A stretch of DNA of 64,000 nucleotides from Yeosuana marina (GCF_011762485.1 NZ_JAAKGI010000001.1:385962-449961); one strand, 5' to 3'; numbered from the stretch's first letter, positions 23,250 through 64,000 are shown. The notes: a model not told the origin generated them from the letters alone. Made by a program: numbers and translations.

Positions 23250-25754
23250 TTACTTTTTAATGGCTTTTTTGGTAATTACTGAACCATTAGATAATTCTAT
23301 TTTAGCAATGAATACAGCATTTTTTAGGTTGGCTAACTTATACGTTTCTATGTTATGACTTCCTTTTAATTGATATAATTGACGCCCTAACAAATCAAAA
23401 ATAGTCACTGTTTTAATGTTGAGGTTGTTAGATGCTTTAAAGCTTACATGCGTATCATCAATTTGCAAAATTTTTACCGTCGAGTTATCCAATTGAACGT
23501 CTGCCGTAGATAAGGTGTTACTAGCTTTAAATACAATTTGAAAACGGTCGTTAAACTCACCAACGTCTGATGTAAATGTATAATCGGAAGTTGATAAATC
23601 GTGTAAGATATTGGTAAGGTTGTCAAGTACATAGATGGTATTAGTACTTAAAAAATCACCTTGTAGTTTTGCTATAGACAAGGTGTACAGGGTGGGTACA
23701 TCAATTTGGGTGCTAAAACCAAGGTTTATAATTTCATCTTCATTTAAACTGCTTTCAGATTTACCTTGAATAGCAAACACTTTGTTTGACCCTTCAATAG
23801 TAGAGTATAAAATGGCAGCTTTACTACTGGAATTTTTTTCTGCATCAAAATAGGCACCATCGTAATTATTGGTAGCCCCTTTTGTATAGCCAATAAGAGT
23901 TTGATTAAACACACCGTTATCAGAGGTTAAATTGACCCAAAGTTTGTTTATAGTTGATGTTGATGTATAGGATTTTGTATTTGAATTTTTGAAAAACTGA
24001 CTATTATCTGAAGCACCTTTTACACGCATGGAGTTATTAAAAGTTACGTAGCCTTTCGCAATAGGTTGTCCCTCAGTATTAGGAGTGGTTGAAACAGGCG
24101 TAGCTAAATCAGACATTGTAATAAAAAACCCTTGTCCTGAAGGTATAAAGTCATTTGGTTGTTCGCCATCGCCACCAGCTACACCGCCCATTCCATTAAT
24201 GATGGCATAATCAGAATCAGAAAAATTACGATCTTCGTTACCATTTGCTATTGATGAAGGCGGTGTGTTTTGCGACCATAAATAGATGGCTCCATTTGTA
24301 TAAGGGTTTCCATTAATATCAGTTCCGCTACCATTTGTTGCTATCACCGTATTAGCAGCTAAAAATGAATTAGCATCAATAGCAGACGGATACGGATTAC
24401 CAATAAAATTAAAGTTTTCATCAGCTTTTTCAGAGTCATTTCTGTAAATAGGAACTGAAATAACACCATTATTAAAGGGCCCAGAAAATGTAAATTTGAT
24501 GTGTTTGTCTGAGGTTCCTGGAGCTGTACTATATGCGAATTCTGAAAGAGTAGCAGCATAACCAACACCACGTTTCATAACGTCAGTACCACTTACCAAT
24601 TGCCAGTCATCTCCATTATCATCAATACCATCTTGTCCAGTGCTTGCTGTGCCATCATTATTTGTTTCTTTCTTAACATCTAAATAATTTTGAGCATTAA
24701 ATGAAAAAATTCTAGTAGGGTTAGCATCACTTAAAGCAACTTGTATTTGTGGTTCAAAAACAGGGGAACTCCAATAGGTATATTCATACCAAGCATTTGT
24801 TGCTGCTGTTAGTTTTTCAACTTGAATTAAATTAGGGGTTGTTAAAACGGCACCACTAACGGTTGCATCATCATTAACTTGAACAAATGCTGCTTGTGGG
24901 TTTACAAGAATAGCTCCATCGACAACAACATCATTTTGTACTTCAATAAAAGTGTTGGAAAGAGCCCCATTAATAACATCATTAATTGATAATGTAGCAC
25001 CAGAATTAACTGTTAAACTGCACGCAGAAAAACTACCATAAGTAGCTGTGTCATAGTCAGCATCAATAGTTACAGAGGTATTCGCTGTCGGTGGACTAGG
25101 AATCCATCCTCCAGCAGTCCAAGTGGAGGAATTAAGACAACATGCTGCCGGTGCGTTTCCAAAACCTATCATATTTTGTCCATCTGCAATTTGAGTAAAT
25201 CTTGTGCTTGGGTCTGTCCAACCTGCAGTGTCCCCATCACATAAGCCATTTATAATTTGTAAATTATTACCTTCTGTTGATACACCTCCACCACTCCAGG
25301 CTGTAATAGGATCATCACCACAAGTTCCAAAGGCATCTTGTAACACACCACCTAAGTATAACTGTAAGGCATCATTACCGTTAAAATCGAAACCGTATTC
25401 TTTAATATCAGAGAGGTTAGTTCCGTTAGCGATTGCATAATCTGTTAAATTTTTTGTGCCAATTACCCAAACTTCATTTGCACGTAAAGTTCCACTTGTG
25501 ATTTCTGCTCCAGGGAAACCATCGGCACAAGGATATCCGTTTCTTCCAACATAAACTTGTAAATTATTTGTACCTGAAAAAGTAATATCAGAACCTGAAA
25601 TATTATAAATTTCAATACCTTTTGGAGTTGACCCAAATGAAGTCTCTATGTATTGACTAATAATTATTTGAGATTGCCCAAACCCAAAACTCACGGCAAA
25701 AAATAGTGTTAGTACTAGAGACAGGAATTTTATAGAAGTAATTTTTGTATTCAT
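23250..25754 (-). CDS. Secreted T9SS cargo protein, paralog B, with N-terminal lamin-tail-like (LTD) domain
   Basis: Signal peptide. IIISQYIETSFGSTPKGIEIYNISGSDITF resembles LTD. Core is shared with paralog A. C-terminal sorting domain ...IELSNGSVITKKAIKK. Confidence 0.65.
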   Translation of the reverse strand: MNTKITSIKFLSLVLTLFFAVSFGFGQSQIIISQYIETSFGSTPKGIEIYNISGSDITFSGTNNLQVYVGRNGYPCADGFPGAEITSGTLRANEVWVIGTKNLTDYAIANGTNLSDIKEYGFDFNGNDALQLYLGGVLQDAFGTCGDDPITAWSGGGVSTEGNNLQIINGLCDGDTAGWTDPSTRFTQIADGQNMIGFGNAPAACCLNSSTWTAGGWIPSPPTANTSVTIDADYDTATYGSFSACSLTVNSGATLSINDVINGALSNTFIEVQNDVVVDGAILVNPQAAFVQVNDDATVSGAVLTTPNLIQVEKLTAATNAWYEYTYWSSPVFEPQIQVALSDANPTRIFSFNAQNYLDVKKETNNDGTASTGQDGIDDNGDDWQLVSGTDVMKRGVGYAATLSEFAYSTAPGTSDKHIKFTFSGPFNNGVISVPIYRNDSEKADENFNFIGNPYPSAIDANSFLAANTVIATNGSGTDINGNPYTNGAIYLWSQNTPPSSIANGNEDRNFSDSDYAIINGMGGVAGGDGEQPNDFIPSGQGFFITMSDLATPVSTTPNTEGQPIAKGYVTFNNSMRVKGASDNSQFFKNSNTKSYTSTSTINKLWVNLTSDNGVFNQTLIGYTKGATNNYDGAYFDAEKNSSSKAAILYSTIEGSNKVFAIQGKSESSLNEDEIINLGFSTQIDVPTLYTLSIAKLQGDFLSTNTIYVLDNLTNILHDLSTSDYTFTSDVGEFNDRFQIVFKASNTLSTADVQLDNSTVKILQIDDTHVSFKASNNLNIKTVTIFDLLGRQLYQLKGSHNIETYKLANLKNAVFIAKIELSNGSVITKKAIKK

Positions 25755-38235: not shown

Positions 38236-38826
38236 TTAATCTATATATTCAATTTTACCAGTTTCTCTATAGGCTGATTTATAAACCCACCTGTGGTTTC
38301 CTCTTATTCTAGCATCAAGTAAATCAATATTTAATTTTTCAGAAAGAGAAAAAGCTTTTTCAAAAGCTTCGTTGGAATCCTCTAGGGCAAATACCCTCAA
38401 AAATTTATTTTTTTTATACCATAGGTTTATTTCATAGCCACTATATGCATTAAAAACAGATATGTATTTCAGATCTTCTAAATTTTGCCATTTTTCATTA
38501 TAAGTGAAAATTCCAATTGAGTAACTATGCATTATTTTAAAATTAGAAAAATTAAAATGAATATAGTGTCTCGATATCAAGGGAAGAATAAAAACAATCA
38601 ATACCCCAAAAAGCCAAATTAAATGAAAAGTCACATTGGCAAGGTCTAAAGTGGTCAATTCATTAATAACATTATCGCTAAAAAAATAAATGATAAATGT
38701 TAAAAAAGCTGAAAATATAACAGAAAACAGGATACGATTGAACCAAGGTACTTTGGGCTCTCTTATTGTTAATTCTTTATCATACATCAAAACAAATGTA
38801 TGAAAACCATGTATTTTTAAAGCCAT
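38236..38826 (-). CDS. Hypothetical membrane protein (2 TM + cytoplasmic domain)
   Basis: Hydrophobic segments FSVIFSAFLTFIIYFF and LIWLFGVLIVFILPLI. No known motifs. Confidence 0.35.
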   Translation of the reverse strand: MALKIHGFHTFVLMYDKELTIREPKVPWFNRILFSVIFSAFLTFIIYFFSDNVINELTTLDLANVTFHLIWLFGVLIVFILPLISRHYIHFNFSNFKIMHSYSIGIFTYNEKWQNLEDLKYISVFNAYSGYEINLWYKKNKFLRVFALEDSNEAFEKAFSLSEKLNIDLLDARIRGNHRWVYKSAYRETGKIEYID

Positions 38827-38990
38827 TTACATTTAGTAGTTTGCAACAACTGTTACTCCTATTGCTGTTTTAAGCAATAACGATGGCTGTATGATTTCGC
38901 GAAGAGATTATTCTTTGCTATAAAGGACGTTGTCTTTCAGGTATAATGATGTTCTCAACCATAACATAAATATAAAAACGAGTTTTATTT

Positions 38991-40208
38991 TCACTGCCTC
39001 CTATTCGCTAAAAGCGGGGGAGGTTCTCCATTAAATGGATTCCATCTACTTATTGTTTTTGCTTCCATACCAGCTGCCGCTATAACAGCTCTGTCTCCAT
39101 AACGCTCACGCATTTTGTCTATAGCTTTACATAAATGAAGGTGTTTTTCGTCGTCTTCAAATAAATTAATTTGGTGCCCGCCTTCAACTAAATGGCTAAA
39201 CTTAACACCAATAAGTCTCACCAATAATCTACGATGATATAGTTTTTTAAATAAGTCTAAAACCACAGGCATAATAACATGATCCATAGAGCTATAGGGG
39301 ATATGCTGCTGCTGTGTATAGGTTTGAAAATCTGAATATCGAATTTTAAAAGTAACACAGGCTGTTAATTTATTGCCTCGGCGTAACTGATAGGCTAAGT
39401 TTTCGGTCATGGCAATAATGATGCTTTTTAGTTTAGCAATATCTGTAGTGTCCTTATTAAACGTGCGTTCTGTAGAAATAGATTTGCGTTCGTGATATTG
39501 TACAACAGGACTATTATCTATACCGTTAGCCTTTTTCCAAATGGATAATCCGTTTTTGCCAAGTACTTTGTGCATTAAATCCATAGGCATTTCTTGTATG
39601 GTTTTAATACGTTTTACACCTAAATCGCATAAAGATTTATAAGTAACTTCGCCAACCATTGGGATTTTTCTAACGGAAAGTGGTGCTAAAAAAGGCTTTT
39701 CGGTACCTGTAATAATCCTGATTTCATTGTTGGGTTTCGCTTCTCCCGTTGCTATTTTAGAAACGGTTTTGTTAACAGATAACCCAAAGGAAATTGGTAA
39801 TCCTGTTTCTTTTATGATGCGTTGGCGTAACTCGGATGCCAATTTGTGGCATCCAAAAAACTTATCCGTTCCCGTAAGATCAATATAGAATTCATCGATA
39901 GAGGTTTTTTCGTATATGGGTACGTTTTCTTTAATAACATCGGTAACGTCTTTTGAGAAATTACTATAAACCCCAGAATTTCCACGAAGTACAATAGCTT
40001 CAGGGCAAAGCATTTTTGCCATACGCATGGGCATGGCAGAATGGATGCCAAAGGTTCTGGCTTCATAACTACAAGAAGCCACAACACCTCTATCGCTTGT
40101 ACCGCCAATAAGTATGGGTTTACCTATTAAACGACTATCAAGCAAGCGCTCGCAAGACACAAAAAAAGTATCCAAATCCATGTGTACTATGGCACGTTCG
40201 TTACTCAT
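38991..40208 (-). CDS. dinB: Y-family DNA polymerase (DinB/Pol IV-like, catalytic residues intact)
   Basis: HMDLDTFFVSCE (the HxDxDxFF motif), SIDEFYIDLT (SIDE), KIPMVGEVT and ISTERTF resemble Pol IV. The start abuts the dnaE2 stop. Confidence 0.8.
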   Translation of the reverse strand: MSNERAIVHMDLDTFFVSCERLLDSRLIGKPILIGGTSDRGVVASCSYEARTFGIHSAMPMRMAKMLCPEAIVLRGNSGVYSNFSKDVTDVIKENVPIYEKTSIDEFYIDLTGTDKFFGCHKLASELRQRIIKETGLPISFGLSVNKTVSKIATGEAKPNNEIRIITGTEKPFLAPLSVRKIPMVGEVTYKSLCDLGVKRIKTIQEMPMDLMHKVLGKNGLSIWKKANGIDNSPVVQYHERKSISTERTFNKDTTDIAKLKSIIIAMTENLAYQLRRGNKLTACVTFKIRYSDFQTYTQQQHIPYSSMDHVIMPVVLDLFKKLYHRRLLVRLIGVKFSHLVEGGHQINLFEDDEKHLHLCKAIDKMRERYGDRAVIAAAGMEAKTISRWNPFNGEPPPLLANRRQ

Positions 40209-43200
40209 TTACAATGTTTTTATAATGTTATGTTTTCTTCTTGATAGAAATTTTGGCGATGGGTCGCTATATCTTGGGTCTTGTATAATAGGTAGTTTTG
40301 CCATAGCTCTCACTTCGATAGTAATGCAATCAAACTCTTCTATAACTTTACCTGTTATTTTATAAATTCCTCTGCCTCTAAAAGGAAATTTTGATGCTAC
40401 GGGCGGAAAGTGAACCGTGTCTATAAAGTCACCATCACAATCTAAAAAAGTACCGAAATGCATTATTTTTCCGTTTGATGTTGCGGTGTTTTTGGTAGTA
40501 ATTAAATAGCCTTCGATACTAACCGTTTTACCAATGTATTTTATGAGGTCTTCGGCTTTAAGCGTGCATTTTAATTCAGTTTCCAGTAATTCAAAAGGAC
40601 TACAAAGTGGGAATCCTAGTAGTTCGATAGCATCGAAAGCATTTTCTAAATAATCACTAGGGAGCTGGGGTGTTTTATAATGTAGTTTTTCAGTTTTAAA
40701 TAAGGTCATAATAGGATCTTCAATAGACACTTTACTAATTTTTAAATGAGCTTCCCAAAGCAATTCACGCTTGTTGATTGTTGTAAATCGAAAGGCATTA
40801 ATCTTTATGAGGATAGAAATTTGCTCTACCGATATAGGAACACGGTCTATAAAATCGTCTAGACTTTTAAATAAACCATTTTTTTGACGTTCTATAAGTA
40901 GTTTTTTTATGATTCTTGCTTCTAATGCATGTAAAAACATAAAGCCTAAATAAATAGTTTTTCCTTTGATAATGGTTTCATTAAAACTCTGGTTAATGCA
41001 AGGAGCTTCAATAATACCACCATGCATTCTGGCTTCGTGCACATACAATTCTGTGTTATAAAACCCACCAAAATTATTAAGGGTTGCAACCATATATTCT
41101 AACGGATAGTAGGCTTTTAAAAACAGACTTTGATAGCTTTCTACAGCATAAGAAGCCGAGTGGCCTTTAGCAAAGGCATAGCCTGCAAAACTTTCTGTTT
41201 GTCGCCAGACTTCTGCTGTGAGTGCTTCGGACTTTCCGCTTTTTTTGCAGTTATCAAAAAAAAGTTGTTTTACTGCTAAAAACTCGTCACGAGAACGAAA
41301 CTTACCAGACATGCCGCGGCGTAATTTATCGGCTTCACCTAAAGTTAATCCACCAAAAATATGAGCTACTTTTATAACATCTTCTTGATATACCATAACG
41401 CCATACGTTTCTGGCATAATGCTAAGTAAAACGGGATGTGCATTTTTTATACGTTCGGGGTAGCGGTAACGCAAAATGTATTCGCGCATCATGCCCGATT
41501 TGGCTACTCCTGGCCGAATGATGGAACTGGCAGCGACCAACCCTAAATAATGATCTACTTGTAATTTTTTAAGAAGCATACGCATGGCTGGAGATTCTAC
41601 ATAAAAACACCCGATAGCTTTGGCATTTCTTAGTAAATCTTTAATACGTTCATCTTGTTTGAAACGCTTAATATCATGAATATCAATAGGTGCTTTTTCA
41701 GGATGGTTATATTTGACAATATCTACCGTGTCTTTAATTTTTCCTAGGCCTCGCTGACTTAAAATATCAAATTTATAGAGTCCAATGTCTTCAGCTACAA
41801 TCATATCAAAGTGTGTGGTAGCATAGCCTTTTGGAGGCAAAAACGTGGCGGTGTAATAATGAATGGGTTTTTCCAAAATAATAATACCGCTGGCATGAAT
41901 ACCCAAATAATTTGGAAACCCTTGAATATATGAGCTGTATTTAATTACTAATTGGGATAATTTGTCTAATTGATGTATGTTGTATTTGCCACGCGTTAGA
42001 ATATCCATTTCGGCTTTTGGTAAGCCAAAAACTTTACCTAATTCTCGTACTGCAGCTCTAAATTTAAAAGTGTTATAAACGGTGAGTAAAGCCGTGTGTT
42101 TAAATCGACTAAAAATATAATCGGTAATGTCGTCTCTATCTGTCCATGAAAAATCAATATCAAAATCGGGTGGATTTTTTCGATATAAATTAATAAACCG
42201 TTCAAAATAAAGGTCGAGTTCTATGGGGTCTACGTCAGTAATTCTTAGTAAATAAGCAATAATACTGTTAGCTCCACTACCACGGCCTACATAAAAATAA
42301 CCTTTGCTTCGGGCGTATTTTAAAATTTTCCAGTTGATTAAAAAATAAGAGACAAACCCTTTTTGTTTTATAATTTCAAGTTCCTTTTCAATACGACTAT
42401 AAATAATGTCGTCTGGATTTTTATAGCGATAATTCAGATTTTTGTAGGTTAGTTTTTTTAGTAACCTAAAATCTAAAGCTTCATTATTTGTGTACGATTT
42501 TTGGTTATTTGGTATTTCTTGCGAAAAATCAAATGCAATATGACACTCATTTAAAAGGGATGACGTGTTTTTAAGAAGTTCTGGAAATTCCTGATAGATA
42601 CCACATAATTCATCATATGGTAACATCTTATCCGTTTCCTTGCCTTCTTCACTTTTTGGAAGCTTGCTTAATAAAGTATTATTGTCAATAGCACGTAATA
42701 ACCGATGGGTGTTGAATCCTTTTTTATTTTCAAAAGTAACCGTTTGTAAAACCACTAATTTGTTTTGTAGTTTGGACCATTTAGAGAACTTAAAATGATT
42801 AAGGTCTTGAGGTTTGATGCCTATAAATTCATTAGGCTTTAACTGATAGTTTTTGTGATGTATATAGGGGTAAATAACAAAAGTGTCTTCTAATTCTGGT
42901 GCTATATCAGGAATGCTTAAATTGGAGTCATGTAAAAATGCAGACAGGTATTCGTTAATATTTTTAAAGCCATTATTGTTTTTTGCAAGGAGGATGAATT
43001 GTTGCTGCGCACCATTTCTAAAATCGACACCTAGTACAGGTTTAATACCATATTTTTCAGATAACCTTACAAAGTCCAAACATGAAGACGTATTGTTAAT
43101 GTCGGTCAACGCTAATGTTTGTATGCCATTTTCAGAAGCCATAGCAAGTAATTGTTCTGGCTTTATGGTGCCATAACGTAAACTATAATATGTGTGGCAA

Positions 43201-43211
43201 TTAAGATACAT
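40209..43211 (-). CDS. dnaE2: Error-prone DNA polymerase III alpha paralog (DnaE2/ImuC-like)
   Basis: 1000 aa. N-terminal PHP domain (CHTYYSLRYGT). Pol III alpha core motif GRGSGANSIIAYLLRITDVDPIELDLYFERFIN. Its length fits DnaE2 rather than DnaE1. Confidence 0.8.
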   Translation of the reverse strand: MYLNCHTYYSLRYGTIKPEQLLAMASENGIQTLALTDINNTSSCLDFVRLSEKYGIKPVLGVDFRNGAQQQFILLAKNNNGFKNINEYLSAFLHDSNLSIPDIAPELEDTFVIYPYIHHKNYQLKPNEFIGIKPQDLNHFKFSKWSKLQNKLVVLQTVTFENKKGFNTHRLLRAIDNNTLLSKLPKSEEGKETDKMLPYDELCGIYQEFPELLKNTSSLLNECHIAFDFSQEIPNNQKSYTNNEALDFRLLKKLTYKNLNYRYKNPDDIIYSRIEKELEIIKQKGFVSYFLINWKILKYARSKGYFYVGRGSGANSIIAYLLRITDVDPIELDLYFERFINLYRKNPPDFDIDFSWTDRDDITDYIFSRFKHTALLTVYNTFKFRAAVRELGKVFGLPKAEMDILTRGKYNIHQLDKLSQLVIKYSSYIQGFPNYLGIHASGIIILEKPIHYYTATFLPPKGYATTHFDMIVAEDIGLYKFDILSQRGLGKIKDTVDIVKYNHPEKAPIDIHDIKRFKQDERIKDLLRNAKAIGCFYVESPAMRMLLKKLQVDHYLGLVAASSIIRPGVAKSGMMREYILRYRYPERIKNAHPVLLSIMPETYGVMVYQEDVIKVAHIFGGLTLGEADKLRRGMSGKFRSRDEFLAVKQLFFDNCKKSGKSEALTAEVWRQTESFAGYAFAKGHSASYAVESYQSLFLKAYYPLEYMVATLNNFGGFYNTELYVHEARMHGGIIEAPCINQSFNETIIKGKTIYLGFMFLHALEARIIKKLLIERQKNGLFKSLDDFIDRVPISVEQISILIKINAFRFTTINKRELLWEAHLKISKVSIEDPIMTLFKTEKLHYKTPQLPSDYLENAFDAIELLGFPLCSPFELLETELKCTLKAEDLIKYIGKTVSIEGYLITTKNTATSNGKIMHFGTFLDCDGDFIDTVHFPPVASKFPFRGRGIYKITGKVIEEFDCITIEVRAMAKLPIIQDPRYSDPSPKFLSRRKHNIIKTL

Positions 43212-43233
43212 GTAGATTTTTTAAACAAAAATA

Positions 43234-43273
43234 ACTACAAATAGTAGTTTTTGTTGCTTATATTTGTAGCAAT
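43234..43273. promoter_or_regulatory. Candidate operator region in the divergent dnaE2 / lexA-like promoter
   Basis: AACTAC-AAATA-GTAGTT (43234..43250). TTGCT-N9-AGCAA (43255..43273). Nested 9-bp inverted repeat CTACAAATA...TATTTGTAG (43236..43244 and 43262..43270). Confidence 0.4.
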
Positions 43274-43295
43274 TAATGTTAAAAATTGAGATAAG

Positions 43296-44066
43296 ATGAC
43301 GCCTATTCAGATTAACATAAAACACTTAAGATTGTTAAAAAAGCTTTCTCAAGAACGTTTTTCAGAAGAACTGAAATGTACACGTTCGATGATTGGATCT
43401 TACGAAGAAGGTCGCTCCGAGCCTCCAATAGAGAGGCTTATAGACTTGTCAAACTATTTTAATATCCCTATTGATATTTTAGTTAAGAATGATTTGAGAT
43501 TGGCAAAAGACACGTCATTCATAGAAATAGGGAGTAAGCGCGTATTATTTCCCATTACAGTTAATGAAAATAACGAAGACCTTATTGAAATTATTCCTGC
43601 ACAAGCGTCAGCAGGTTATTTAGCTGGTTATGCAGACCCTGAATATATAGAGCAATTACAAAAAATTAAATTACCTTTTTTACCTACGGGAACTCATCGT
43701 GCTTTTCCGATAAAAGGCGACTCTATGTTACCCGTAAAAGATGGATCTTTTATTGTAGCCAAGTTTGTTGAAGATATTCAAGACATTAAAAATGGGAGAA
43801 CCTATATTGTTTTAACTAAAGATGATGGTCTAGTTTATAAGCGTGTTTATGATAAAGATGCGGATACTTTAATTTTGAGTAGTGATAATAGATTTTATAA
43901 TCCTTACGAAGTTAAAAAAGATCAAATTTTAGAATTATGGGAGTTTACCTGTTGTATAAATACGCAAGAGTATAAAGCCGAAGAATTAAAACTGAGCAGT
44001 ATTATGAATATGTTTCAAGAATTAAAAGTGGAATTGGAATCCATAAATATTCAGAATAAACCTTAA
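43296..44066 (+). CDS. LexA-like repressor (XRE HTH + S24 peptidase)
   Basis: N-terminal HTH (LSQERFSEELKCTRSMIGSYEEG). C-terminal S24 autoprotease motifs are GDSM (Ser) and LVYKRV (Lys). Confidence 0.8.
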   Translation: MTPIQINIKHLRLLKKLSQERFSEELKCTRSMIGSYEEGRSEPPIERLIDLSNYFNIPIDILVKNDLRLAKDTSFIEIGSKRVLFPITVNENNEDLIEIIPAQASAGYLAGYADPEYIEQLQKIKLPFLPTGTHRAFPIKGDSMLPVKDGSFIVAKFVEDIQDIKNGRTYIVLTKDDGLVYKRVYDKDADTLILSSDNRFYNPYEVKKDQILELWEFTCCINTQEYKAEELKLSSIMNMFQELKVELESINIQNKP

Positions 44067-44126: not shown

Positions 44127-44567
44127 ATGATACGACATAACGCTAAACCGCTAACTTTCTTTACTCCAGATGATAGTGATAATTCAGGAGCTTTTTTCTT
44201 TGATACAGGGATTTCTGCAGGATTCCCGTCACCTGTCGACGATTTTAGAGAAGAACGACTATCTTTAGACAGCATACTTGTTAAAAATAAACTAGCGACG
44301 TTCTATGCACGCGTAAGTGGTCAATCTATGATTGGTGCGGGACTAGACGATAACGATTTGTTGGTTATAGATAGAAGTCTAGAACCTACAAACAATAAAA
44401 TAGCCGTTTGCTTTTTGGATGGAGAATTTACGGTAAAACGTTTAAAAGTAGATAAAGATGAGGTTTGGCTACAACCAGAAAACCCTGATTATCCTATTAT
44501 AAGAATTACGGAAGACAATGATTTTCTTATTTGGGGGATTGTTACCAATGTAATAAAGAGGGTGTGA
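44127..44567 (+). CDS. umuD: UmuD-like S24 autopeptidase (translesion polymerase accessory subunit)
   Basis: 146 aa, no HTH. GFPSPVDDF...LDSILVKN...ATFYARVSGQSMIGAGLDDNDLLVIDRS...DGEFTVKRL aligns closely with E. coli UmuD (CGFPSPAADY...[27 protein letters not shown]...DGEFTVKKL). Confidence 0.75.
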   Translation: MIRHNAKPLTFFTPDDSDNSGAFFFDTGISAGFPSPVDDFREERLSLDSILVKNKLATFYARVSGQSMIGAGLDDNDLLVIDRSLEPTNNKIAVCFLDGEFTVKRLKVDKDEVWLQPENPDYPIIRITEDNDFLIWGIVTNVIKRV

Positions 44568-44684: not shown

Positions 44685-45167
44685 GTGGATGCTTACCCTG
44701 AAATCATACTTACAAGTGCTGAATCTTACTTTTTACAGGCTGAAGCAGTTGTTAGAGGTATAGAAACAGGGGATGCTCAAGCGTTATTTGCATCTGGTAT
44801 TGTAGAGGCCATGAAATTATGGAATATTTCTACGGGTGATGCTGAAACTTATATTGCTAATTCATCTATTGCTGATATTTCAGCGGGTACTATGGATGAA
44901 AAATTAGAAAAAATAGCATTACAAAGATGGTTGAATGCTTACACAGATGGATTCGAAGGCTGGGCAGTAGTTAGAGATACAGGATATCCTTCAGAATTAT
45001 ATGCTGGTGTATCAAATCCTACAATTTTCGCATTAGGTAACTTGAACGGCGCTTATCCTCAAAGATTACGTTATGGATCTAGTGCACAAGCAAATCCAAA
45101 TTTTGCTGCTGCAGTTTCTGCTCAAGGAGCAGATGTACAGGCAACAAAATTATGGTTTGCAAAATAA
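44685..45167 (+). pseudogene. C-terminal remnant of a SusD/RagB-family gene
   Basis: Only 160 aa with a GTG start. ...LQRWLNAYTDGFEGWAVVRDTGYP...ATKLWFAK is a typical SusD C-terminus. There is no upstream susC, and an in-frame stop lies 84 bp upstream with no SusD-like sequence. Confidence 0.55.
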
Positions 45168-46712: not shown

Positions 46713-47006
46713 TTAGTCTGCTAAGACAATAACTTTATTGTCTTTCATTTCTATTGTTCCAGAATTAATCTTAACCGTTAGTACTTTTTTATCATCAAAA
46801 TGAGGAATTACTTCACCGTGAAGATGATCAAAGTCTAAATGGCTTTGAGAGTGCGTTTTAATTTTAACAGTTCCCTGTTTTAAAAGCGATACAATTGGAG
46901 CGTGATCTTTTAACATTTCAAACTCACCATTAACTCCAGGAACAGATACAGAATCTACTTCTGAACTAAATATGGTTGCTTCTGGTGATACAATTTCTAA
47001 ATACAT
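46713..47006 (-). CDS. atpC: F0F1 ATP synthase epsilon subunit
   Basis: 97 aa. LEIVSPEATIFSSEVDSVSVPGVNGEFEMLKDHAPIVSLLKQGTVKI pattern. Confidence 0.85.
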   Translation of the reverse strand: MYLEIVSPEATIFSSEVDSVSVPGVNGEFEMLKDHAPIVSLLKQGTVKIKTHSQSHLDFDHLHGEVIPHFDDKKVLTVKINSGTIEMKDNKVIVLAD

Positions 47007-47085: not shown

Positions 47086-48597
<1,512 letters not shown>

Positions 48598-63566: not shown

Positions 63567-64000
63567 ATAGGTTTCTAACATTTAAAAATCGCGGTAATTT
63601 TTAATTATTTGAAAAACAATAAATTAAAACTTAAATATTGTAGCTTTTTACACACAAATAAGCAGTGTTTTTAGTCGTTTATTTAAGTATTTCATATTTT
63701 TTATCGGTTTTTAATCGGATTTTTTAATCACTTTATCGAAAAAAAATCACTTTTCCCTATTGCGCATACAAAGAATATATTAAATTTGTACAATTAGATG
63801 TAAGGTAAACGGTTTTGTTCTCTTTATAACTAATATACTTCCCTCAGTAGTTTTAAAATCCATTTTACTAGCAAGAGTTAAGTAGTACTTATGAAATAGT
63901 CCTAAATAAGATGCTTGACTTATGAAATTAAATTACTACAATATCACTTATGTGATATTAACATTGCTTATTATTGAATTCTTTACTGCGCATCGACTTC

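Follow-up and report, generated by a model that had tools for sequence, protein, structure and literature searches.

The closest described relatives of the system considered here are the "non-canonical LexA" proteins of Bacteroidetes, in which a CI-like HTH_3 domain is combined with an S24 domain (Sánchez-Osuna et al., NAR 2021, PMC8565304). These proteins form two ortholog groups, one binding GGA-N5-TCC and the other CTAA-N5-TTAG, as validated by electrophoretic mobility shift assay (EMSA) and mutagenesis, and members of the family bind such 4-N5-4 dyads in their own promoters (PMC8565304). Diverged arms with the same dyad-spacer layout have been reported within the CTAA-N5-TTAG group, and the published site collection includes the hybrids CTAC-AAATA-TTAG and CTTA-ATATA-TTAG (PMC8565304). 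A diverged paralogue from Elizabethkingia anophelis, WP_078407279.1, binds TTAC-AAATT-GTAA by EMSA (PMC8565304, Fig. 8); mitomycin C induces the gene for this paralogue together with an error-prone polymerase gene transcribed divergently from it (PMC8565304). The homologues in Table S9 of the same study include proteins from Winogradskyella, Tamlana, Algibacter, Lacinutrix, and Psychroserpens, and the Winogradskyella sp. PG-2 protein (WP_045470999.1) is two accession numbers away from a DinB homologue, WP_045470997 (PMC8565304). Winogradskyella sp. PG-2 and Tamlana carry the label "L2_M2" in the published tree (PMC8565304), which we read as meaning that the type-2 regulator is present and the type-2 motif was detected.

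The locus analyzed here lies in a 64-kb stretch of Yeosuana marina DNA, hereafter the window. Its control region is an 84-bp intergenic segment (43212-43295) between a minus-strand DnaE-family gene and a plus-strand gene for an HTH_3-S24 repressor. The repressor gene (43296-44066, 256 aa) encodes a CI/Cro-type HTH_3 domain (Pfam PF01381) plus an S24 peptidase domain (PF00717). Downstream of it lie a umuD gene, an MFS transporter gene, and atpC/atpD. The umuD gene (44127-44567, plus strand) encodes a UmuD-like S24 protein of 146 aa (NCBIfam NF007621; score 158 bits, cutoff 110) and is probably cotranscribed with the repressor gene; neither a dyad nor a -7 box was found in the 60-bp gap between the two. 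On the other side, the DnaE-family (DnaE2-like) polymerase gene (40209-43211, minus strand, 1,000 aa) is the first gene of the divergent operon. Its product has the Pfam domains PHP, DNA_pol3_alpha, finger, and HHH_6, and it scores above the cutoff of the superfamily model TIGR00594 and below those of the DnaE-specific and error-prone-polymerase-specific models. With zero gap, it adjoins a gene for a DinB-type Y-family polymerase (Pol IV; 38991-40208, minus strand, 405 aa; Pfam IMS and IMS_C; NF002677, 273 bits against a cutoff of 256).

We scanned one genome per species for orthologues of the repressor and obtained 77 orthologous loci, all from Flavobacteriaceae, in genera that include Winogradskyella, Gaetbulibacter, Yeosuana, Tamlana, Algibacter, Psychroserpens, and Lutibacter, among others. 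The orthologues are 63 to 87% identical to the window protein. A 78th match, from Streptococcus, was discarded as spurious, its similarity being confined to the HTH. The divergent neighbor of the repressor gene is the dnaE-dinB pair in 72 of the 77 loci, and a UmuD-like gene occupies the same position as in the window in only 3 of them. The sequence-only reading had spoken of an "island"; nothing points to a mobile one. In 72 of the 77 related species the cassette is arranged alike. No prophage context (a cro-like divergent gene, an integrase, or phage structural or lysis genes) was found around the repressor gene, and its neighbors are chromosomal.

In the repressor, the HTH_3 domain spans residues 8 to 62 (E = 1.5e-12) and the S24 peptidase domain residues 102 to 210. 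No match to the LexA winged helix (PF01726) was found in the protein, which also falls below the TIGR00498 lexA model, and a sequence search of the PDB returned generic HTH matches only. The residues of a self-cleaving protein are present: a cleavage site, ASA-GY (Ala106-Gly107), and the catalytic GDSM (Ser143) and YKR (Lys182) motifs. The A-AGY, GDSMLP, and YKR motifs are invariant across 76 orthologues. We placed the protein within the family by BLASTP against the C-terminal domains in Data S5 of PMC8565304. Four members of the CTAA-N5-TTAG cluster match at 44 to 51% identity (E = 1e-35 to 2e-50), and the C-terminal domain is 46% identical over 157 aa to the EMSA-validated WP_025606010.1 of Pontibacter actiniarum (E = 2e-45). 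Matches to the GGA-N5-TCC cluster are at 31 to 35% identity (E = 1e-15 to 4e-22), and those to E. coli LexA, lambda CI, and UmuD are marginal (E = 0.03 or higher). These similarities place the repressor among the non-canonical LexA proteins of Bacteroidetes, closer to the CTAA-N5-TTAG cluster than to the GGA-N5-TCC one.

Three palindromes in the intergenic region had been proposed as candidate operators from the window sequence alone, and all three are present where they had been placed. We simulated an 84-bp segment of the same AT-rich composition 5,000 times with a first-order Markov model. The 6-5-6 palindrome has a chance probability of 0.12, the 5-9-5 palindrome 0.29, and any 9-bp inverted repeat 0.34; taken singly, the palindromes of this AT-rich segment are not beyond chance. 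One sequence proves nothing, and the case therefore rests on cross-genome comparison. We aligned the promoters of the window and 74 of the loci, 75 promoters from as many species, anchoring them on the most conserved block. Per-column conservation was computed in a first pass from 73 anchored sequences, all distinct, and base-pairing was counted in 71 distinct sequences.

The alignment contains no indels over about 60 bp, from position -28 to position +29. Across the 73 anchored sequences, conservation is concentrated in four blocks separated by freely varying positions. The first is CAAAATTA; the second is (G/A)CTAC, five variable bases, and GTAGT; the third, which follows a variable 5-bp linker, is TTGCTTATATTTGTAG(C/T)AA; and the fourth is TGTTAAA (43277-43283, plus strand), at +7 to +13 of the predicted repressor leader. 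The TGTTAAA block is 85 to 99% conserved per column and is lost where leaders are rearranged. By the same column statistics, the spacer of the first palindrome, the linker between blocks two and three, and the outer flanks vary freely. Dyad arms, both -7 boxes (described below), and a 19-bp block are near-invariant in the 75 promoters. The conserved elements are under selection at invariant spacing and coincide with promoter positions. These data bear directly on whether the palindromes are functionless chance features of AT-rich intergenic DNA, a notion that the single-sequence probabilities of 0.12 to 0.34 and the lack of motif enrichment over the window as a whole would allow. Such an origin is extremely improbable in view of arms that stay near-invariant at fixed spacing in 75 species while adjacent positions are randomized and the repressors themselves are only 67 to 87% identical. 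Conservation across these sequences contradicts chance for the first two palindromes; for the five extra base pairs of the third, chance is still the best account.

The first palindrome contains the element that we call O1, a perfect dyad, CTAC-AAATA-GTAG (43235-43247, no strand), whose arms are conserved in the 75 promoters. In this genome it extends to AACTAC (43233-38), AAATA, and GTAGTT (43244-49), spanning 43233-43249, which is the 6-5-6 palindrome first described. The comparison upholds its core, CTAC-N5-GTAG, as a conserved 4-5-4 dyad and does not uphold the outer bases, which are not generally complementary: of 71 distinct sequences, only 19 have a Watson-Crick fifth pair and 50 a Watson-Crick sixth pair. 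The arms are a perfect CTAC/GTAG in 57 of the 75 promoters and CTAT/GTAG in another 12. In the 73 sequences, the C and G of the arms (C-19 and G-7 of the alignment) are 100% conserved, and the innermost C is C in 81% and T in 19%. The spacer, by comparison, takes 16 forms among the 75 promoters, AAATA occurring in the window only. Within the 973 kb examined, perfect CTAC-N5-GTAG occurs 64 times, and 57 of these matches are at this promoter position.

The conserved positions around O1 can be read as promoters. In Bacteroidetes, the -7 element is TAHHTTTG, with its G at -5 and the transcription start 4 to 5 nt downstream, and a -33 element is barely detectable (Baez et al., PMC6847099). The repressor gene has such a -7 element, TATATTTG (43259-43266, plus strand), which fits TAHHTTTG in 75 of 75 loci. 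It lies at a fixed distance from O1, whereas 18 to 637 nt separate it from the start codon. By the 4-to-5-nt rule, the repressor(-umuD) transcript is predicted to start at 43271-43272 on the plus strand, at an invariant A preceded by a C/T position, with a leader of about 25 nt. On the minus strand, TATTTTTG (43226-43233) likewise fits TAHHTTTG and would serve the dnaE-dinB operon, with a predicted start at 43220-43221 (minus strand), by the same rule, and a leader of about 10 nt. The minus-strand box (CAAAnnTA, within 1 nt) is found in 64 of the 73 loci with a divergent dnaE; the other nine have TAnnTTTA instead of TAnnTTTG on that strand. It is absent from both anchored loci that lost dnaE-dinB (L014 and L042). 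A -33 element is not recognizable in either promoter, and a sigma-70 scan of the intergenic region gave no match, as expected for a Bacteroidetes promoter.

The exact starts of both transcripts are predictions, and they lie about 50 bp apart. An independent check is provided by the start codons, which are never upstream of the predicted starts, either for the repressor or for dnaE. The repressor ATG comes no closer than alignment index +18, the start being predicted at +17/+18. For dnaE the nearest ATG is at -35 and the predicted start at -33/-34; in the 73 loci the codon is at its closest 1 to 2 nt downstream. In many loci no gap is left between the start codon and the predicted start, so that leaderless or near-leaderless mRNAs are implied; the repressor mRNA is predicted to be leaderless in four. 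Placed on this map, O1 is flanked by the two -7 boxes and overlaps each promoter's core, at -36 to -24 of the repressor promoter and -26 to -14 of the dnaE promoter.

Could the conserved blocks then be promoter elements only, their dyad symmetry incidental and the repressor acting elsewhere or not here at all? Both -7 boxes do match the phylum consensus, AT-rich motifs at -18 and -28 have been reported for Bacteroidetes promoters (PMC6847099), and, as noted, a single sequence lends the palindromes no statistical significance. Yet between the -7 boxes no G/C positions are conserved except those of CTAC and GTAG, which are not AT-rich elements, and the arms are symmetric at the same 5-bp spacing as in validated sites of the family. 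In addition, the repressor promoter has an unvarying GTAG at -5 to -2, of which the general consensus requires the G alone. Taking these points together, we consider a purely promoter-based explanation improbable.

This invariant GTAG belongs to the second palindrome. The 5-9-5 palindrome that had been described, TTGCT (43254-58), N9, and AGCAA (43268-72), coincides with the near-invariant 19-bp block TTGCTTATATTTGTAG(C/T)AA (43254-43272, no strand), which holds the repressor -7 box, the predicted start, and a second candidate operator, O2. Of its 19 columns, 17 are at least 95% conserved across 73 distinct sequences. At position 16, 42% of sequences have C and 58% have T, without a compensating change in its partner G, and the central G:C pair of the palindrome is Watson-Crick in only 31 of 71 distinct sequences. 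The block reads better as the -7 box TATATTTG combined with a CTTA-N5-GTAG dyad than as the palindrome first drawn. In this parsing, the last G of the -7 box would begin a GTAG half-site, the CT of a left half-site would precede the box, and a pyrimidine-A start would follow it.

The putative O2 is thus an imperfect dyad, CTTA-TATTT-GTAG (43257-43269, no strand), that overlaps the repressor -7 box at -14 to -2 of the repressor promoter. Its arms are CTTA/GTAG in 72 of 75 loci and CCTA/GTAG in the other 3. The centers of O1 and O2 are 22 bp apart, about two helical turns. O2 looks like a compromise between promoter and operator: its left arm is CTTA and not CTAC because positions 3 and 4 must supply the TA of the -7 box. 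The left arm agrees with the O1 arm at only two of four positions, and O2 could therefore be mere promoter and start-site context.

The third palindrome fared differently. This 9-bp inverted repeat, CTACAAATA (43235-43) with TATTTGTAG (43261-69), had been offered as a further candidate operator, but it is incidental and peculiar to this genome: it exists here because the O1 spacer of the window happens to be AAATA, and it reduces to CTAC/GTAG arms. Its conservation is limited to the four CTAC/GTAG pairs; the remaining five are formed in 3 to 61 of the 71 sequences, and overall 62% of cells are paired, no better than in a slid control. The same repeat bears on whether the inverted repeats are nucleic-acid structures (an RNA hairpin, a leader attenuator, or a DNA cruciform) and not protein-binding sites. 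The window sequence does fold better than its shuffles (z = -2.35 on the plus strand and -4.17 on the minus strand), but this advantage depends on the nonconserved 9-bp repeat. Moreover, the local palindromes show no covariation beyond that of shuffles, a pattern expected of protein-binding sites and not of RNA helices. In addition, both transcripts are predicted to start downstream of O1, and no Rfam match or terminator-like site was found in the region. We regard a structural role as very unlikely.

We also looked for operator sites upstream of other genes and found none that are convincing in the 64-kb window or in the 12-kb flanks of the orthologous loci. The window has two exact copies of CTAC-N5-GTAG, O1 and one at 25033 that lies inside an 834-aa ORF. 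With one core mismatch allowed, the window has 12 matches against 11.2 expected. Two of the near-matches were considered individually and look like chance: one at 38827 abuts the start of orf196 with no -7 box nearby, and one at 63838 is intergenic, near the window end. Among the orthologous loci, the extra perfect matches in L012, L013, L016, L054, and L059 are in coding sequence, and there is one more in L076. Two related patterns were also set aside as coding sequence for the ATP synthase epsilon subunit (atpC): a conserved AGCTAA-N5-TTAGCT palindrome in six loci, which encodes KLIILAD at the C-terminus of the subunit, and a GCTAA-N5-GTAGC hybrid in four loci, which encodes EATLFS.

CTAA-N5-TTAG is absent from the intergenic region, the sole such sites in the loci lying in atpC coding sequence, and so is GGA-N5-TCC. 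Neither CTGT nor ACAG occurs in the region, and the layout is 4-N5-4, so the earlier remark that the motif differs from the LexA box of E. coli holds. The motif found here also appears to be a new variant: CTAC-N5-GTAG is absent from the published site lists and Table S10 of PMC8565304, and we found no follow-up on this motif in the later literature beyond that 2021 paper.

These searches are relevant to the question of which protein would occupy the dyads. They might be operators of another regulator, either a GGA-N5-TCC-type LexA or an unrelated factor, with the adjacent repressor having other targets. Flavobacteriaceae that possess both types place a broad regulon under the GGA-N5-TCC regulator (PMC8565304), and the visible part of this genome amounts to 64 kb. 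On the other hand, the region lacks a GGA-N5-TCC site, the linkage of dyad and repressor holds in 74 other species, and the CTAx/xTAG arms are one base per arm away from the motif of the repressor's own ortholog group. Winogradskyella and Tamlana, furthermore, are labeled as having the type-2 regulator only (PMC8565304). Control of these sites by a different protein accordingly seems to us a poor prospect, and we favor the adjacent repressor as their probable ligand.

The Lutibacter orthologues suggest how the variant motif may have arisen. These proteins are 63 to 66% identical to the window protein, and their loci have neither a divergent polymerase operon nor O1; instead, a single CTTA-N5-TTAG is present at the position of O2. 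Since Lutibacter keeps TTAG, the clade of the window would be the one that changed the innermost base of the half-site, from TTAG to GTAG (CTAA to CTAC). The recognition helix and the residues after it read GSYEEGRSEP in the window's clade and SSYEE(D/N)RA(I/T)P in Lutibacter. These helix substitutions correlate with the half-site change, a correlation based on two Lutibacter sequences only. More speculatively, and with less than even confidence, we suggest that a clade-wide half-site switch from CTAA to CTAC accompanies a two-operator, lambda-like switch that is dedicated to a mutagenesis cassette and not to a genome-wide SOS regulon. The clade to which this would apply is a large marine one within the Flavobacteriaceae (Winogradskyella, Tamlana, Gaetbulibacter, Yeosuana, Algibacter, Psychroserpens, and relatives), and the cassette of the dnaE2-like gene, dinB, and sometimes umuD.

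Considering the comparative and published evidence together, we propose a model that we think is likely to be correct: a compact bidirectional region with two promoters and two repressor operators, from which the repressor is released upon DNA damage. Two back-to-back Bacteroidetes sigma-A promoters with TAnnTTTG-type -7 boxes would drive, respectively, the dnaE2-like gene with dinB and the HTH_3-S24 repressor gene, together with umuD in this genome. A repressor dimer would bind O1 and occlude the core of both promoters, and a second dimer bound at O2 would cover the repressor's own -7 box. The centers of the two sites are about two helical turns apart, and cooperative binding of the dimers is therefore possible. 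Upon DNA damage, RecA-ssDNA filaments would stimulate self-cleavage at Ala106-Gly107 by Ser143 and Lys182, and the cleaved repressor would leave the DNA, so that both transcription units are induced. O1 and O2 are thus probable autoregulated, DNA-damage-inducible operators. The two main predictions of the sequence-only reading, that the adjacent S24 repressor has operator sites in this region and that the unit is autoregulated and probably DNA damage inducible, gain support from both the cross-species comparison and the literature (PMC8565304). That reading holds in outline, with its details corrected as described above.

If correct, the model describes at base resolution how widespread marine flavobacteria keep error-prone polymerases off until DNA is damaged. 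It would also offer a natural example of binding-motif drift, by one base per half-site, in the non-canonical LexA family, a point relevant to the published proposal that duplication of a regulator is followed by divergence of SOS motifs. In practical terms, the 75-species alignment constitutes a ready position matrix for regulon prediction and defines clear targets for mutagenesis.

Several well-described systems provide points of comparison. Like canonical LexA, the regulator appears to be an S24 self-cleaving dimeric repressor with a palindromic operator, autoregulation, and control of translesion polymerases. It differs in having HTH_3 in place of the PF01726 winged helix and in a motif and spacing unlike CTGT-N8-ACAG, and in sequence it resembles the C-terminal domain of E. 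coli LexA only marginally (E = 0.03). UmuDAb of Acinetobacter is likewise a non-LexA S24 member and is reported to repress genes for error-prone polymerases by way of an atypical palindromic SOS box (PMC11332147). UmuDAb is UmuD derived and needs the DdrR corepressor, whereas here the repressor is CI-like and the UmuD-like protein is encoded by a separate gene downstream.

The resemblance to lambda CI extends to the architecture of the control region. Like lambda, the system would have an autoregulating, self-cleaving HTH-S24 repressor, and its putative pseudo-symmetric operators, as with OR1 to OR3 between PR and PRM, lie about two helical turns apart in a short divergent promoter region. The cI mRNA made from PRM is leaderless, as is predicted for the repressor mRNA in four of the related loci. 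Unlike lambda, the present system is chromosomal, with no prophage, and its divergent partner is a polymerase operon and not cro. Only two sites are seen in it, its promoters are of Bacteroidetes type, nothing in it suggests positive autoregulation or cooperativity, and the BLAST match between the C-terminal domains is marginal (E = 0.07).

Closer likenesses are found within the phylum. The CTAA-N5-TTAG group's proteins (PMC8565304) share with the window repressor an HTH_3 N terminus, an S24 domain with Ala-Gly, Ser, and Lys, and a helical tail after it. Also in common are own-promoter sites in which arms of 4 bp flank a 5-bp spacer and an association with dinB, dnaE, and umuD. They differ in the sites themselves, the arms here being CTAC/GTAG (O1) and CTTA/GTAG (O2) with a different innermost half-site base, and in that, within the window and the flanks, only own-promoter dyads are seen here. 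By analogy, we regard E. anophelis WP_078407279.1 as the nearest functional analogue of the arrangement in the window, a diverged 4-N5-4 dyad in a promoter region common to the regulator and a divergent polymerase gene being present in both. The arms there are TTAC/GTAA, a second promoter-embedded site is undescribed, and the regulator is a recent Weeksellaceae paralogue, in contrast to the widely conserved Flavobacteriaceae orthologue studied here. The system is accordingly a local variant of the SOS switch described for the phylum in 2021 (PMC8565304), and as such largely expected. What is new is not a kind of system but a motif variant that differs by one base per half-site, together with a resolved layout of two promoters and two operators.

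The divergent dnaE-dinB pair has been lost from two of the related flavobacterial loci that carry repressor orthologues (handles of the form L0xx), L042 (Winogradskyella bathintestinalis) and L014 (Gelidibacter salicanalis). In both, the minus-strand -7 box (the Bacteroidetes TAnnTTTG promoter element) has decayed, and the imperfect dyad O2 and the repressor promoter are retained. The predicted operator O1 reads CTAT-N5-ATAG in L042, the sole sequence with a symmetric double change.

Where the pair is present in the window, the DnaE-family gene is followed by the dinB-type gene with zero intergenic bases between them (40208/40209), and this gapless junction suggests translational coupling of dnaE and dinB. 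No imuA-like gene is adjacent to the pair in the window. Downstream of dinB, a 196-aa ORF on the minus strand (38236-38826) matches nothing in Pfam or NCBIfam; in L015 and L033, its homologues also come after dinB. The start codon of this ORF is directly adjoined by a near-operator, TTAC-ATTTA-GTAG (38827-38839), with one core mismatch; because there is no -7 box close by, this site is probably a chance occurrence.

On the other side of the operators, umuD occupies the same position as in the window in just three other loci (L058, L061, L064), which suggests a local rearrangement around this gene. The 160-aa ORF just 3' of umuD (44685-45167) looks like a truncated SusD-like remnant: its match to the 415-position profile of SusD-like proteins is confined to positions 298-414, the C-terminal quarter. 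Farther along the window, a 502-aa ORF (47086-48594, minus strand) precedes a 97-aa ORF (46713-47006, minus strand) that was read by eye as the ATP synthase epsilon subunit. In several related genomes, the final codons of the epsilon-subunit gene, which encode KLIILAD, happen to read as a perfect palindrome of the canonical type, AGCTAA-N5-TTAGCT (L013 8130, L021 11130, L022 11081, L027 11490, L043 6960, L053 7118). These being coding codons, we ruled the palindrome out as an "SOS box"; a motif-based regulon scan would list it as a false positive.

The repressor leader contains a conserved element, TGTTAAA (43277-43283; +7 to +13 of the predicted leader; 85-99% conserved per column), which both the operator and the promoter model leave unexplained. 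Its distance to the -7 box is fixed, and it is lost from loci with rearranged leaders. Insertions separate the conserved operator/promoter block from the repressor start codon in L010, L012, L017, L045, and L062 (~95-110 bp), in L014, L026, L076, L020, and L057 (up to 637 bp), and in L042, L043, and L074. Some open with a duplicated-looking ATGAAAC... remnant, and a leader hairpin, TTCCCAC-TTTC-GTGGGAA, is present in three loci.

In L059, L068, L072, and L077, the repressor start codon falls 18-20 nt past the anchor, the most conserved promoter block, and in many Winogradskyella loci the dnaE start lies at -35 to -38. These start codons directly adjoin the transcription starts predicted for the two genes. 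Leaderless transcripts, or transcripts with a leader of 1-5 nt, are therefore predicted for the repressor in the four species and for dnaE in ~34 of 73 loci. The lambda cI mRNA transcribed from PRM is likewise leaderless, resembling the repressor mRNA predicted for these four species.
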